64,000 bases of DNA from a bacterium (lineage in GTDB: Bacteria > Patescibacteriota > SICC01). The notes beneath the pieces are model-generated. The model saw nothing but the letters and a program-made list of their open reading frames with translations. It was not told the DNA's origin and made no database searches. Position 1 is the stretch's first letter; each line of letters opens with the position of its first letter. A program made the translations under genes and the position numbers. Shown one piece after another: positions 54,631 to 60,550 of the stretch. The stretch covers positions 18,970 to 82,969 of the forward strand of contig JAUYKS010000022.1 of NCBI GenBank assembly GCA_030699935.1, given 5' to 3'.

Positions 54631-55150
54631 ACGCCGTCAGGATCCGCTCCGCGACTTCCTTGGCGGGCACTTTCGTGGTGTCGATGACCAGGTCCTGGGT
54701 GCCGAGATCCGACAAGGATATTGAGTAGAGCGCCTTGTAGCGTTCGCTTTCGAGCCGTTCGCGCGTCTTGATGTCCTCGGTCGTGCCCGGTTCCCGCTCG
54801 CGGATGCGGCGCAGACGTTCGTCTTCGGCGCAGGTCAGCCAGACTTTGAAGCCCGGGGTGCCGGGCGGCAGGATCCAGGCCAGGACCCGGCTTTCGACGA
54901 TGACGTTTCCCTGCCGGGCCCGCTCGACCAGGCCGTCGTCGACCTTCCGCTCCAGTTCCGGATGCCGTTTGAGCGTCTCGTTGTACTGCTCGATCGTCTC
55001 GCCGGACGCGGCCGCATGTTCGCGGAAAATGCCGCCGGCGTAGACATGTTCAAGCCCGAGCTGTTCCGCGACCAGCCGGCTGGCAGTCGTGGATCCGGTT
55101 CCGGAGAGACCGCCGATGATCAGGACCGGTCCCGTCGGACGGTCAGGCAC
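54620..55150 (-). CDS. cmk: Cytidylate kinase, short archaeal-like type
   Basis: GLSGTGSTT (Ser at the usual P-loop Lys position), AGGIFRE, ESR, R..RI..RE, Y..LY.I, DLVIDTT. Confidence 0.75.
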   Translation of the reverse strand: MPDRPTGPVLIIGGLSGTGSTTASRLVAEQLGLEHVYAGGIFREHAAASGETIEQYNETLKRHPELERKVDDGLVERARQGNVIVESRVLAWILPPGTPGFKVWLTCAEDERLRRIREREPGTTEDIKTRERLESERYKALYSISLSDLGTQDLVIDTTKVPAKEVAERILTAFKK

Positions 55151-55826
55151 CGCGGGCCTCCCCGGATCGGATCTTTTCGAGGAACCGTCGCAGGTCGTCC
55201 GGCAGCAGCGACTCCACCGTGACGGACTTGCCCGTCCGCGGATGTACGAACTTCAGTTTCGCGGCGTGCAGGAACTGCCGGCCGGGACTGCGCTCCGTGG
55301 ATCCATACGTCGCATCCCCGACGATCGGATTGCCGAGCGCGGACAGGTGGACGCGGATCTGGTGCGTCCGGCCGGTCTTCGGCCGGACCTCGAGCAGGGC
55401 GTATCCCGGCAGCGACTCGATTACTTTGTACCGGGTCACCGACGCCTTGCCGTCCGGCCGGACCGCGAACTTCTTGCGGTCGGCGTGGTGCCGCGCGATC
55501 GGCGCGTCCAACTCGGCCTCGGGTTCCGTCGGATTGCCGCGGACCAATGCCAGGTAGGTCTTCGTCACGGTCCGGTCCTTGAATTGCTTCGACAGCACGG
55601 CGGCGGCTTCCGCGGTCTTCGCGGCCAGCAGGACGCCGGACGTATCCTTGTCTAACCGGTGCACCAGACCGTGGCGTTCCAGCTTGCCGGTCTCGGGAAC
55701 GTTCGCTGCCAACCAGTCCAGCAAGGTGCCGTCGCTGCGGCCGGCGCCGGGGTGTACGGCCAAGCCGGCCGGCTTGTCGACGGCCACGAAATCGGAATCG
55801 TCCAGCAACACGGCCGGTTCAGTCAT
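55143..55826 (-). CDS. RluA/RluD-family pseudouridine synthase (no S4 domain)
   Basis: DKPAGL.VHP, HRLDKDTSG, TGRTHQIRVH. Confidence 0.95.
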   Translation of the reverse strand: MTEPAVLLDDSDFVAVDKPAGLAVHPGAGRSDGTLLDWLAANVPETGKLERHGLVHRLDKDTSGVLLAAKTAEAAAVLSKQFKDRTVTKTYLALVRGNPTEPEAELDAPIARHHADRKKFAVRPDGKASVTRYKVIESLPGYALLEVRPKTGRTHQIRVHLSALGNPIVGDATYGSTERSPGRQFLHAAKLKFVHPRTGKSVTVESLLPDDLRRFLEKIRSGEARGA

Positions 55827-56292
55827 CCTGTCCCCGCCGCCAGAGGATCGTGACCAGGATTCCCGCCCCGGTGATGATCGCCAGGTCGGCCACGTTGAAG
55901 TGGGCCGTCGGGCCGATTGCCACGATATCGAGTACGCCGTCGTACTGGATGCGGTCGAGCGTGTTGGACGCGGCGCCGGCCAGCAGCAGCCAGAACCCGG
56001 CCCGGACCTCGGGACGGAAGCTCCGCGTCAGCCAGTAGCCCAGGCACGCGGAGATCGTGACGCCGGCGATCAACAGGATGCCGTTGTCGATCGGCAGGCC
56101 CAGCACGCCCTCGCGGTTGTAGACGGCGCCGATCCGGAGCGGTCCCGCGGTCAGGATCGTGCCGCCGTTCACGACGAGCCACTTCGTCAGCTGGTCGACC
56201 AGGACGATGCCAAGGGCGACCACGCCGAATCCGCGCGGCGGGTTCAAACGCGGCGGACTGAAGCGGAACGTACTGAAACGCGACAGGTTCAC
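55819..56292 (-). CDS. lspA: Lipoprotein signal peptidase
   Basis: DQLTK, N.G, GAASNTLDR, V.D, FNVAD; GTG start overlaps the lgt stop. Confidence 0.88.
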   Translation of the reverse strand: MNLSRFSTFRFSPPRLNPPRGFGVVALGIVLVDQLTKWLVVNGGTILTAGPLRIGAVYNREGVLGLPIDNGILLIAGVTISACLGYWLTRSFRPEVRAGFWLLLAGAASNTLDRIQYDGVLDIVAIGPTAHFNVADLAIITGAGILVTILWRRGQDD

Positions 56293-57089
56293 TTCGCCAG
56301 CCCCACCCGGTATCGGCGGACCAGTACGTACAAGCTGATTCCCATCAATATCAGGCCGGTGGCCACGGCGGCCCGGATCCCTCCCACGAAGAGCGCTTCC
56401 TCGGACTGATGCCACGCCTCCAGGGTTACCTGCACGATCCCGAGCAGGAAGACGGTCACCCAGAAGACCAATCCCGGCTTGGCTTTACCGGCGGCGCCGA
56501 GTTTCCAAAGCCGGTAACCGTAGACGGCGATCGCGGCGTAGAGCACGGCGGCGTAGAGTGCCAGCGGATGGACGCGCACGCCCTCCACCAACGACGCCAA
56601 CTGATCCGCGTAACCGATCGACCAAGGCAATGACGTCTGCGTGCCGAGGAAGTCGCCGTTGAGAAGGCTGCCGATCCGGCCGGCCGCCAGTCCGGCCAAC
56701 GCGGCGATCGCGGCGATGTCCAGCCAACGCCAAGTGGAGCCGGTCCGATCGCCCGTGCCCTGGACGCCCCGTTGCCAGCGGATCACCGCCAGCAGTCCGG
56801 CCAATCCCCCGGCGACCCCGCCGGCCAACGCCAGCCGCCCGCCGCCGATCGCGAACCAGTTCCAGAACGAACCGGCGTCTTCCGGCCGGAGCGCCAGGTA
56901 CCACAGCCGCGCCCCGAGCAATCCGCCGAAGGCGGTCGCCAGCAAGTAGTCACTGATCCGCCGGCTCGGCAATCCGGCCTGCTTGGCCAGAAGGTACGCT
57001 ACCGCCGCCGCGACCCCGAATCCGAACACCACGAAGACACCGTAACTGTAGACGGTCAGGGGTCCGAGCTCGAAGAGGATCGGCTGCAT
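56289..57089 (-). CDS. lgt: Prolipoprotein diacylglyceryl transferase
   Basis: P.LFELGP..VYSYG, LGARL.Y, GRIG..LNG..G..T.LPW, HP..LY. Confidence 0.88.
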   Translation of the reverse strand: MQPILFELGPLTVYSYGVFVVFGFGVAAAVAYLLAKQAGLPSRRISDYLLATAFGGLLGARLWYLALRPEDAGSFWNWFAIGGGRLALAGGVAGGLAGLLAVIRWQRGVQGTGDRTGSTWRWLDIAAIAALAGLAAGRIGSLLNGDFLGTQTSLPWSIGYADQLASLVEGVRVHPLALYAAVLYAAIAVYGYRLWKLGAAGKAKPGLVFWVTVFLLGIVQVTLEAWHQSEEALFVGGIRAAVATGLILMGISLYVLVRRYRVGLAK

Positions 57090-57119
57090 GCCCTTCATTG
57101 TATGGTCGGCCCGCGTGAA

Positions 57120-57737
57120 AATGAAAAAGGCGCCGAACTAAGGCCACCCGTAATGAATTAACTTGGTGCTTGCCGGCGCCGATTTCCTAAAAAAGGTTTG
57201 GGGCTCCCCGAGCGATCCGGGAGCCCCGGCCCGTGCCATCTTGGGATGTGCCGGGCAGCAGGCTTGGCGCCACCGGTCTGAGTCTGACCTAGTCGAGCAT
57301 TTGTTTTGATTTTTTCTCGCAGGGAGACTCAGAACGGTGAAGCTAAGGGTTGCTGCCCGGCACGGGTAGGGACAAACGTGAATGGTCTTGAAACGTTGTG
57401 TTTCGGTTTTGGGAGGGTTGAGGGCGCACCGTGATGCGGCCTCTTTGGTTTTTGTTTGTCCGTTCGTCCGCTGTGGGTGGGTGGGATCGGCACCCGCTCG
57501 AACAGCAGGGCGGCGAGCACCTTCTGGCTAGCGATATGCGGTCATGAAGGTGTTGTTTCTTTTTGATTTTCCTTCGCAGAGGACGCTGCGTCTTAAGGGA
57601 AAGTGCTCGACTCCCCGCCGTTCGGCTGCGGTTCCGGCTTGGAACCGTGCGTGGCATGGGCCTTATTTTGAATGTGCTTGGGGGACTAAAAACCCCGATG
57701 TCGCGGGCCTTTTGCGGCCACCGCTCAATCGGGATTA
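57120..57737 (-). ncRNA. Candidate large structured non-coding RNA of about 615 nt, family not recognised
   Basis: Dedicated promoter and terminator, several nested 8-15 bp helices with G-U pairs favouring the minus strand, repeated A/C-rich loops, no credible CDS. Confidence 0.7.
57122..57181 (-). terminator. Terminator-like hairpin closing the candidate ncRNA
   Basis: GGCGCCG...CGGCGCC followed by TTTTTCATTTT. Confidence 0.6.
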
Positions 57738-57741
57738 AGTC

Positions 57742-57770
57742 AACGTAGCACCGTGAACAAGACTTGTCAA
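57742..57770 (-). promoter_or_regulatory. sigma70 promoter for the candidate ncRNA
   Basis: TTGACA-N17-TACGTT with an extended -10 TG. Confidence 0.65.
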
Positions 57771-57854
57771 CACTTATGCATAATATTTGTTCAATCAGGC
57801 ACGGTAAGGCATGGGCCAGGCACAAATAAACATGATTTAGGCAAAAACAGTTAC

Positions 57855-57892
57855 GAAGAAAGCAGCGGATTTGGGTTTGAAACCCGCTGCTT
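57855..57892 (-). terminator. Terminator-like hairpin downstream of the 58111-58533 gene
   Basis: AAGCAGCGG...CCGCTGCTT followed by TCTT. Confidence 0.55.
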
Positions 57893-58110
57893 GTGTGTCG
57901 GTCCATACCTTTGAATCCATACCCTTGGATCATCTTCTGTAAAGCCTCGTCAAATGCCTGACGGCACCTCCCCTGACGAGACCTCGGACGGATGGCGGGG
58001 AGCCGGATGCGGCGCATCCGGAGATAGATGGATCACCTCCTCAGTCGTCGACGCCGATCAGGACGGCAGGCGCAGGCAAATTACATCACCACCTTTCGAC
58101 AACTTGGAGG

Positions 58111-58533
58111 TTAGCGGACCATCGCCACGCGCGGCGCGAGACGAGGCGGGCGCAAGGCGCTTCGCCGGGACCGCTTCCGCGTGCGCGCGGGTCTTTCCGA
58201 GAGGGCCGTAACGGGCTCGTCGGTCGGAACTACATAGGGCGGATGGAGTAACGTCTTCTCCCTCAGTCCCTCTTGTTGCAACTCCTCGCACATCTGGCAT
58301 TCGCCGCGCAGGTGCCGGTGGTGATCCTCATCCATGATCTCGTACGAGGGCATGGAGGGCGGATCGCCATGGTTGATCAGCTTGTGCTGCTCGATCGGCA
58401 TCCGCACTTTCCGGCACGGACGGTTCCGGAAGGCCCTGGTGATCTCCTGATCCATTCCGGATCGCGGAAACTTATACCAAGGCTCCGGAAATACCTCGTG
58501 ATGAACGTTGGTACCATCTCTGTCGCGAGCCAA
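58111..58533 (-). CDS. Small His/Cys-rich hypothetical protein, possibly HNH-like
   Basis: TTG start with SD AAGGGA; NVHHEVFP...FRN.PC...EQH..INH, later H.H...CQMC, Arg-rich tail. Confidence 0.55.
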   Translation of the reverse strand: MARDRDGTNVHHEVFPEPWYKFPRSGMDQEITRAFRNRPCRKVRMPIEQHKLINHGDPPSMPSYEIMDEDHHRHLRGECQMCEELQQEGLREKTLLHPPYVVPTDEPVTALSERPARTRKRSRRSALRPPRLAPRVAMVR

Positions 58534-58696
58534 CAGATACGTCCCTTCGTCGTCGGTTTGCAGGTATGGATTGTGTTTTTGAGGTACGAAAAAACCGCCC
58601 TAGAGCGGTCGCGAAAGAAGCCCTTGTCCTTCGCTTTTGTTTTGACGGCCTGAATGAACCATCGCTCTTAATTGTACGGCCTGCGCGAGGCACCCG

Positions 58697-59779
58697 CTAG
58701 GACTTCTTGGATGGGGATGGGGATTGGGATGAGGATGGGGACGGCGTCTCGGTCACCGGCTCCTCCGGCAGCTCTGTGAACTGCTCCAGCTTCTCCGCGA
58801 CCTTCGCTTGCGTGCCGGTCAGGGCGCCCGCCTTCTCGATCTTCCCTTTCATGTGGTCGTAATCTTTCTCCACCGACGGCACCGTCTTCTGCGCGTTGCC
58901 GAGGTGCTTGAACAGCAGCTCCAAACTCCCTCCAAGCTTTCCGGAATCCTGCTGGATCGCGCGAAGCTCGTTGAGCACTTCTTTCGCCCGCACCTCGATC
59001 TGCTCTCCTTCGAAGCTCTTCAGGACCAGCTGAAGGAACAGGTAGAAGTTGTTCGGCGAGACCAGGATCACGTGCTTGTCCGCCGCGAAGTCGAACAGGT
59101 TGGTGTCGTTGTAAATCTCCTGGAAGACCGCCTCGCCCGGCACGTACATGAAGGCGTAGTCGACCGTGTCCTCGCCCGGCAGGATGTACTTCTTGGCGAT
59201 GTCGGTGACGTGCTTCTTCACCTGCTGATGGAAGTCGCGGAGCAGCGCGGTCCGCTCGGTTTCGCCCTTCACCTTCTGCGCCGCCAGCCACTTCTCCAGC
59301 GGGAACTTCGAATCGATCGGGATCATGCCGCTCGAGGTCAGCACGACCGCGTCCACCTTCTCACCGCTCTTGAACGTATGTTGCAGCTTGAACTTGGCCT
59401 TCGGCAGGCATTCGGAAAGGATGTCCTTCATCAGCGACTCACCGATGTTGCCGCGGAGCTTCGGTGAACGGAAGACCTCGCGCATCTCTTCGATCGATTG
59501 GCCCATCTTCTGGATCCGCCCGACTTCCTTGTTGAGCTCGGCGATCACCCCGGCCGCCTTGTCGAGGCGCTGCCCGATCTCCTTGCTGGTCTCCTGCGAG
59601 CTCCGGCTGGCATGACGTTGGTCTTCCTTGAAGTCCTTTAGCCACTGCATCAGGGCCGAGTCGTCGTCGCCGGCCTGCTCGGCCAGCTCCCGCGCCTTCC
59701 GCTGCTTGAGCAGCTCGTAGTAGACGGCGGCGATCATCACGATCAGCACGACGGCGGCGATTACCAAGATAGTAGTCAT
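58697..59779 (-). CDS. rmuC: DNA recombination protein RmuC
   Basis: TM + coiled coil, RGNIGE, IDSKFP, I.KKYI.P..T.D.A.MYVP.E. Confidence 0.92.
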   Translation of the reverse strand: MTTILVIAAVVLIVMIAAVYYELLKQRKARELAEQAGDDDSALMQWLKDFKEDQRHASRSSQETSKEIGQRLDKAAGVIAELNKEVGRIQKMGQSIEEMREVFRSPKLRGNIGESLMKDILSECLPKAKFKLQHTFKSGEKVDAVVLTSSGMIPIDSKFPLEKWLAAQKVKGETERTALLRDFHQQVKKHVTDIAKKYILPGEDTVDYAFMYVPGEAVFQEIYNDTNLFDFAADKHVILVSPNNFYLFLQLVLKSFEGEQIEVRAKEVLNELRAIQQDSGKLGGSLELLFKHLGNAQKTVPSVEKDYDHMKGKIEKAGALTGTQAKVAEKLEQFTELPEEPVTETPSPSSSQSPSPSKKS

Positions 59780-59788
59780 ATATCCACT

Positions 59789-60550
59789 CTACAGCACGTC
59801 GTCCGGCGAGCCGATGATCCGCGGTTCGGAGAGGTCGTACACGACGTCCTTACGCTCCAGCACCACCCGCCAGCCGGCCTCCTTTGCCTTGGTCAGCAGC
59901 CGCTGGTTCGGATTGAACGCGATCGGGTTCTCGATCATCTCAAGGAAACCGATATCGCCTTCCGTGTCGCCGATCCCGACGGACCCGTCCAACGTCACCT
60001 CGGCGTGCTCGGCCAGGAAATACTTCACGACTTTTTCCTTGCCGTCCATCGGATGCAACCCCGCCGGCTTGCCGGTGAACTTCCCGCCTTTGACCTCCTG
60101 TTCCCAGCCGAAGACGTAATCGAACTTCAGGAACCGGTTGTACTTCTTGAGCGCGCCTTGCAGCATGCCGGAGACCGCCATCAGGACGTAGCCTTTCTGC
60201 TGGAGCCGCTCCAATAGCTCGTGCGTGAACCGGTACTGCCGGTTCTTCAATTCGCCGATCACCGCTTCCGCGAAGTGGTTGAATTCCCGCTCGTTGATAC
60301 CGGTAAAGTGCCGTTCGATCACCCGGACTAATTGCTCGTTATATTCCTCGAAGCTCCCCTGACGGTCCTTCCACGCGTTCTTGGCGGCCACCAGGTCGGC
60401 GTAGGCGGATTCCGGAATCATCTTCACCGCGATCATCCGGTCGACGATCTCGATCATCACCGCGGAGCGGAACAGGGTGCCGTCGATGTCGAAGACGGCC
60501 AGCGGCTTGGTGTCGTGCGTGTGTTCCTTCACCGCCAAACCCTTGCGCAT
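59789..60550 (-). CDS. HAD-superfamily hydrolase (IB, SerB-like)
   Basis: FDIDGTL, VSG, K, GDTEGD, NPN. Confidence 0.9.
   Translation of the reverse strand: MRKGLAVKEHTHDTKPLAVFDIDGTLFRSAVMIEIVDRMIAVKMIPESAYADLVAAKNAWKDRQGSFEEYNEQLVRVIERHFTGINEREFNHFAEAVIGELKNRQYRFTHELLERLQQKGYVLMAVSGMLQGALKKYNRFLKFDYVFGWEQEVKGGKFTGKPAGLHPMDGKEKVVKYFLAEHAEVTLDGSVGIGDTEGDIGFLEMIENPIAFNPNQRLLTKAKEAGWRVVLERKDVVYDLSEPRIIGSPDDVL

Follow-up and report, generated by a model that had tools for sequence, protein, structure and literature searches.

A predicted structured RNA gene recurring across many Patescibacteria families

Described large RNAs and the present locus

The described bacterial RNAs closest to the one reported here are CrcZ and CrcY, the large RNAs ROOL, GOLLD, and OLE, and the RNAs 6S and Ms1. 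In Pseudomonas, CrcZ and CrcY are stand-alone RNAs of approximately 400 nt with several A-rich, initiation-like stretches and a decoy logic; CrcZ (407 nt) has six A-rich stretches and titrates Hfq, a protein that attaches to ribosome-binding sites rich in A (PMC4063720). ROOL, GOLLD, and OLE are large, highly structured RNAs of unknown function with covariation-supported kissing loops, and the loop contacts of GOLLD and ROOL, which were first found via covariation, proved to be intermolecular, with bridges formed by conserved adenines (PMC12286853). The raiA-motif RNA is likewise large, highly structured, and of unknown function. The 6S RNA (RF00013) and Ms1 are single-copy RNAs with strong promoters, long irregular helices, and conserved synteny; Ms1 binds to core RNA polymerase (RNAP) and was traced via synteny (PMC9130861).

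The RNA gene described here lies on the minus strand of the window (i.e., the whole 64,000-nucleotide stretch of DNA analyzed), on contig C18 of a 762-kb Patescibacteria genome (G000; 62% GC; completeness of 93%). A search of positions 55000 to 60000 of the window against Rfam 15, with E values up to 10, returned no match over the RNA, and 4 further loci of the same genus and two sets of 3 and 18 distant loci gave only chance matches far below the cut-off. No catalogued family therefore matches this RNA, as the first-pass annotation had supposed. The literature searched, mostly open-access papers, holds no description of it, and none of the terms CPR, Saccharibacteria, and Berkelbacteria turned up when the text of PMC11109978 was searched. 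The RNA thus appears to be a real structured RNA gene of an undescribed family within that literature, with a fold shown by comparison and a probable transcript. The earlier proposal of a new class of large noncoding RNA stands as regards a stand-alone structured RNA with its own promoter and terminator and no Rfam family; the molecular switch proposed along with it lacks support.

Like CrcZ, this RNA displays repeated single-stranded A-rich motifs, and like ROOL, GOLLD, and OLE, it has a covarying loop-loop pairing. It differs from CrcZ and CrcY in being far more helical, in having no Rfam match, and in belonging to a family in which the kissing loop covaries and DnaA-box-like sites accompany a promoter of the sigma-70 type. 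Hfq was over the cut-off in none of 28 carrier genomes, and a search of the source genome for Sm/LSM domains gave no match; the RNA is consequently CrcZ-like in its logic but not a member of that group. In contrast to ROOL, GOLLD, and OLE, it is chromosomal and single copy, has one loop contact, and is known so far only from Patescibacteria, a range probed outside the phylum by exact-pattern scans. Unlike 6S and Ms1, it is multibranched rather than one bubbled hairpin.

Several known classes were tried and rejected. The source genome carries its tmRNA on contig C10 (143.9 bits) and its RNase P RNA (RF00010) on contig C19 (244.7 bits), so that, as annotated earlier, the RNA is neither of these; ARAGORN called no tRNA or tmRNA gene at the locus. 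It is not a signal recognition particle (SRP) RNA either, again as first thought: such an RNA would have a helix-8 motif and an Ffh/FtsY partner, and RF00169, RF01854, and PF00448 were not detected in the source genome, which is 93% complete. A 6S identity was dropped because neither RF00013 nor a CPR-6S profile matched and there is no single hairpin with a central bubble. Resemblances to group II introns, SAM-I, HDV-like ribozymes, and T-boxes were dropped for lack of an Rfam match. A noncoding RNA associated with a reverse transcriptase (RT; i.e., a retron, DRT, or group II intron) was rejected since no adjacent, co-occurring RT was found. Two of the nine genomes in the class-level sample have RT genes, namely, the source genome (C14:2168-2860 and C1:4152-4568) and G003 (two matches); none lies beside the RNA, and none was found in the other seven, including the single-contig G002. 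Short 6S matches of approximately 150 nt were observed in 16 of 121 Patescibacteria genomes, and most of the 12 such loci read (L052-L063) lie downstream of a protein with what we take to be a site-2-protease-like motif.

Architecture of the RNA gene

The gene sits between rmuC with a variable insert on one side and lgt-lspA-rluD on the other. The features are as follows (7/7 denotes all seven members of the genus).

57754-57793 (57793-57788 and 57759-57754), no strand: inverted 6-bp repeat with a 28-nt spacer flanking the -35 element, candidate operator; invariant in 7/7
57742-57770, minus: sigma-70-type promoter (-35 at 57770-57765, 17-nt spacer, extended -10 at 57747-57742), probable start near 57735
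57687-57736, minus: 5' hairpin plus a U-run of 5 to 6 nt; first 21 nt invariant and U-run in 7/7, seen only in this genus
57228-57662, minus: closing helix P1 (57662-57652 with 57238-57228) around a multiway junction; adjacent compensatory changes between two subclades
57499-57624, minus: arm 1, long irregular helix; apical loop with A-rich copy 1 (starts at 57569)
57479-57495, minus: small hairpin, first partner in the kissing loop; stem of 5 bp, loop of 7 nt (57490-57484)
57370-57469, minus: arm 2; the family-wide A-rich motif of 14 nt (57458-57445) lies single stranded here, and a tetraloop hairpin (57443-57420) covaries
57248-57363, minus: arm 3, long helix; apical loop with A-rich copy 3 (57313-57300)
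57200-57227, minus: hairpin right after P1; loop 57218-57213 complements the small-hairpin loop (5/6 pairs in 7/7)
57124-57180, minus: 3' terminator hairpin (57180-57129), inner helix conserved, AU-rich loop, then U-run; conserved in 7/7
56289-57089, minus: lgt (then lspA and rluD), downstream of the RNA; -10-like element 6 to 7 nt ahead of the start codon

The promoter proposed at first (TTGACA-N17-TACGTT) is present as described. Its -35 element is invariant, and the TG, TA, and final T of the -10 element are kept, in all seven genus members. A consensus promoter scanner found 0 promoter-like sites at the locus and did not call the terminator, and the promoter's form is common among perfect -35 sites of the source genome. 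The inverted repeat is the sole site of that genome at such spacing, even with up to 1 mismatch allowed. The 5' hairpin with its U-run and the terminator, both annotated at the outset, are borne out by their conservation; a pause, an attenuator, and a 5' protector are possible roles for the hairpin. In the Kazan and Andersenbacteria copies folded, the leaders differ from it. The same terminator module closes most of the distant members folded, and the hairpin that precedes it there is lost in the source genome. A boxA-like motif, presumably for antitermination, occurs in the 5' leaders of many family members (L301-L306, L321, L325, and L326). As a side observation, many strong promoters of the source genome have an extended -10 followed a few nucleotides later by a common short A/T-rich motif, and Kazan members carry the same motif after the promoter of this RNA.

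The copy in the window, at 618 nt, is an expanded variant of the family. Its minimum free energy (MFE) of -273.7 kcal/mol corresponds to a z score of -8.87, and none of 20 shuffled sequences folded equally well. The minus strand had the better z score in 4/4 homologues tested (-7.5 to -10.6 versus -5.7 to -9.3), and the raw MFE was lower for the opposite strand in 7/7 genus members. The arm helices lie where the first-pass annotation had placed them, and the closing helix was recovered in computed folds; an equivalent of P1 appears in many distant members. The base of arm 1 is conserved family-wide while its length varies, with two-sided changes in 3 of its 12 basal pairs. The hairpin of arm 2 (57443-57420) shows two-sided changes in 4 of 9 pairs; its YACG tetraloop is closed by a U-G pair in 7/7 genus members. 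RNA identity to G003 is 81%, compared with only 66% for the adjoining lgt DNA, which indicates stronger conservation of the RNA than of the neighboring gene. An overlapping 224-amino-acid open reading frame (ORF) was rejected as a gene (coding score of -96.9, no Pfam match, and frame-breaking indels in 2/2 relatives tested).

Covariation within the genus agrees with this fold. Across the seven sequences, pairing holds in 94.8% of cells, and two-sided changes occur in 8 of 127 pairs; 0 of 500 shuffles reached the covariation score, and slid controls paired at 39 to 46%. The two-sided change seen in the partner hairpin after P1 comes from the unpublished G001, and P1, extracted separately, shows adjacent compensatory changes. 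Since the sequences fall into just two subclades, one of which supplied the structure, covariation in the genus alone is moderate evidence. A pairing of arm 1 with the arm-3 loop had also been put forward as a pseudoknot or switch. The 9-bp complement does exist in the source genome; only 5 to 6 pairs form in the other six members, where the outer pairs break, and the local helices of both arms stay paired through sequence changes, so the switch is not supported. In a systematic scan between unpaired regions, a single fully Watson-Crick 5-bp pairing was left, between the small-hairpin loop and the loop of the hairpin that follows P1. The comparison thus identifies 57490-57484 and 57218-57213, a kissing loop absent from the earlier reading, as the predicted true tertiary contact.

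Distribution, shared core, and kissing loop

The RNA is present in all 6 other genomes of the genus. Matches to a model of arm 3 (R1) were confined to this genus (6 of 149 genomes), and a model of arm 1 (R2) matched three genomes outside the class, in each case in an intergenic region behind a promoter, with the small hairpin, A-rich linker, and 3' module in common. A covariance model rebuilt from 10 diverse rows (R3) detected the RNA in 12/13 genomes of one family and 1/13 of the other in the Kazan class (E < 1e-4), in 8/9 genomes of the class including Andersenbacteria (E up to 0.0014), and in 23 of 150 genomes phylum-wide (E up to 0.05), 2 of which were judged false on inspection. The family thereby reaches into Kazan, Andersenbacteria, and other Patescibacteria (taxon names as in the record titles), for a total of at least 11 families (11 in the phylum sample, plus one through a strong Kazan-class match and one through inspection), and each genome has a single strong match. 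Rows removed as false or unsupported were G013, G067, G309, G030, G296, and the first G034 match; G056 and the second G034 match were retained on inspection despite weak scores. Under strict filters, 127 of the 150 phylum-wide genomes had no match, which may reflect loss or divergence. Two genomes of the same class, G007 and G008, also had no match for the RNA; this carries little weight because contigs of G008 break after the rmuC cassette and inside lgt and neither rmuC nor rluD was detected in G007.

Pattern scans were less specific. A hairpin pattern occurred in 20 of 401 genomes, with 6 true and 7 chance matches among the 13 outside the genus on inspection, and the 3'-module pattern gave at least 119 matches, almost all of them in records whose titles place them outside the phylum and which were therefore regarded as chance. 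All 12 matches of a 20-mer scan of metagenomes were chance matches; three viral scans gave 0 matches, and a fourth gave 16, all by chance. BLAST searches found no match in phages and 2 chance matches in plasmids. Three more divergent candidates (L336, L338, and L339) lie upstream of DksA/TraR-like genes; their R3 scores are weak (12.9 to 19.1 bits), yet a promoter, an arm, and the A-rich motif are present.

Members folded are mostly approximately 340 to 460 nt long (one of 602 nt) and mostly share one order, which runs within a closing helix from arm 1 through the small hairpin and the A-rich strand to arm 3, followed by the partner hairpin, a further hairpin, and a terminator with an inner helix. 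The RNA in the window is, on this comparison, one of a family recurring across many Patescibacteria families, more widely than was first seen, with a predicted core of closing helix, long arm, small hairpin, and near-invariant single-stranded A-rich motif. That motif, overlooked by the first-pass annotation, is evidently among the most conserved parts of the RNA. In a matrix built from 31 distant members, most of its 14 positions are kept in 25 to 31 of them, and it persists in the 3 of 31 without a detected small hairpin. Twelve RNAs (7/7 in this genus and 5/31 distant) have 2 to 4 copies, and the source genome has three, on arms 1, 2, and 3; these account for 3 of the 7 sites of at least 15 bits in that genome. 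UUG, AUG, or GUG occurs within -1 to +7 nt of the motif in 27/31 distant members, against 10.7 expected, and AUG directly follows copy 3 on arm 3 in 6/7 genus members. The start triplet would fit a mimic of an initiation region; the UUG may simply be the first bases of the next stem. No start triplet follows the family-wide copy (57458) in the source genome, and the peptides read from motif-linked triplets (1 to 53 amino acids) show no conservation.

The small hairpin is invariant in 10/10 alignment rows except at two loop positions; its stem and loop vary among wider members. It was found in 35/38 members, each with a 5- to 9-bp downstream complement, mostly in the loop after P1. In 23 of 28 distant members, no more than 6% of randomly drawn loops scored as well as the real one; the complement was not significant singly in the 5 others or in any of the 7 members of this genus, and the top-scoring complement in G102 is a paired region rather than a loop. 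Among 19 distinct loops, the cognate site was best or tied for best for 13 (mean score of 16.5 versus 10.5). Where the loop is strongly divergent (G120, G110, G091, G092, G070, G021, and G322), its partner has changed correspondingly. Compensatory changes across 19 loop types show, at the level of sequence comparison, a loop-loop contact that may form within or between molecules.

The surroundings of the RNA vary across the family. The commonest gene order is a DinG-like helicase gene, the RNA, a DksA/TraR-like gene, and lspA; helicase domains were found in 8/18 upstream proteins scanned and zinc fingers in 10/24 downstream proteins, and neither the helicase nor the DksA/TraR-like gene was found in the source genome. 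Downstream neighbors include lgt, dksA/traR-like genes, gmk, UPF0047, and unknown genes, with dksA/traR-like genes, lspA, and lgt being frequent and the Kazan family and others differing. Upstream of family members, 9-mers that we take to be DnaA-box-like number 35 in 10,141 nt (22/32 loci), approximately 17-fold denser than in the flanks (14 in 70,300 nt); there is 1 in 10,230 nt downstream, and 2 lie upstream of the 12 6S genes. No such site was found upstream of the RNA in 6/6 members of the present genus checked.

Possible roles of the RNA

We favor, at a probability of roughly 45%, a decoy that acts in trans on some reader of A-rich initiation regions. A single-copy, independently transcribed RNA would act in trans in Patescibacteria; the closing helix and loop-loop pseudoknot shown by comparison hold the A-rich motif single stranded, usually just before UUG, AUG, or GUG, and the RNA would bind and titrate a factor recognizing A-rich, translation-initiation-like RNA, analogously to CrcZ acting on Hfq. 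The factor could be a non-Hfq repressor or a small-subunit/S1-type site. This genus would have multiplied the site onto three arms, raising its valency. In most lineages, DnaA may set the RNA level through the upstream boxes, coupling it to the replication state, and in this genus the inverted repeat around the -35 element may replace them. This decoy reading is supported by the near-invariance and recurrence of the motif, the start triplets, the upstream boxes, the CrcZ precedent, the position of the best-scoring site among gene starts of the source genome (C12:3203) directly before a predicted start codon, and the changing downstream neighbors, which favor action in trans. It is weakened by the lack of Hfq and Sm/LSM matches, the missing triplet at 57458, the lack of DnaA boxes in the genus, and the few obvious targets: start regions of the source genome are only mildly A-rich (22 to 38% A in the 15 nt ahead of starts) and seldom contain a motif match with a high score. 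A bolder and rather doubtful version makes the RNA a DnaA-controlled core RNA, in which the pseudoknot-scaffolded mimic captures ribosomes or small subunits. If true, such an RNA would couple protein synthesis to the replication state in Hfq-less, ultrasmall symbionts and would be a ribosome-side counterpart of 6S RNA.

The alternatives explain parts of the same evidence. The long irregular helices, single copy, and strong promoter would also suit a 6S- or Ms1-like RNA that binds RNAP together with the neighboring DksA/TraR-like protein, whose zinc-finger gene follows the RNA in 10 members according to Pfam (with 2 of these scoring under the curated cut-off) and, according to alignment, in 2 others, and Ms1 offers a precedent in its core binding and its tracing through synteny (PMC9130861). 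We consider this unlikely, given that five carriers (G070, G078, G099, G100, and G110) have a separate 6S match, that the core is no bubble in a hairpin, and that the source genome retains the RNA, yet the DksA-like gene was not found there. Somewhat harder to sustain is a cis-acting leader, either a riboswitch or an attenuator that senses ribosomes, with its 3' terminator controlling the dksA-lspA-rluD or lgt operon. The RNA is usually co-oriented with a gene a short distance ahead of it, its junction-plus-kissing-loop topology recalls cobalamin and lysine riboswitches, its terminator has a conserved inner motif, and a 10-bp alternative pairing with arm 1 could form in 7/7; that pairing, however, shows zero variation, at least five unrelated families are represented among the downstream genes, the ORFs downstream of some members are all distant or on the opposite strand, and no riboswitch or T-box in Rfam matches. 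In addition, lgt has its own -10-like element, from which a separate and leaderless transcript is predicted, and approximately 240 nt separate the terminator from lgt in G002.

A self-assembling "ornate" RNA akin to ROOL, GOLLD, and OLE, with an intermolecular kissing loop and the adenines as A-minor bridges, is improbable. Both kissing loops hold a 4-nt palindrome in this genus, and GOLLD and ROOL set a precedent for intermolecular loop pairing and adenine bridges (PMC12286853), but a single covarying loop pair was found, arm lengths vary widely, some members have no detectable small hairpin, and the viral and phage scans made turned up no true phage copy. We give very little credence to a base-pairing small RNA that applies its A-rich strand to U-rich targets, or to an RT template: the motif is conserved and single stranded, but so low-complexity a seed offers little specificity, and RT genes, found in only two of nine class genomes, are not beside the RNA and were not found in the single-contig G002.

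To our knowledge, few large structured RNAs of bacteria are single copy and retained across many families, and those of known function belong to the core machinery. That genomes of 0.5 to 1.1 Mb keep this one suggests that it serves Patescibacteria in a regulatory or housekeeping function not yet described. Now that a tertiary contact is backed by covariation, an invariant motif is defined, and a regulator has been proposed, partner capture and structure determination become direct tests, and the short members (approximately 340 to 400 nt) are suitable for cryo-electron microscopy.

Two further elements were observed near the locus. At 58040-58028 there is a long match to what we take to be the anti-Shine-Dalgarno complement; no start codon follows it, and a similar element occurs at the equivalent place in G003 and G004. 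At 58662-58590 (minus strand), a leaderless upstream ORF of 20 to 22 codons has its stop codon at the start of a U-tailed hairpin, an arrangement that looks like a ribosome-dependent attenuator. Counterparts lie at L086:2584-2652 and L087:2624-2689, the position is downstream of rmuC in the source genome, G003, and G008, and a basic ORF of 140 to 180 amino acids, whose copy in the window has no Pfam match, follows the hairpin. The short peptides have a common Asn..Glu-Gly..Arg pattern.
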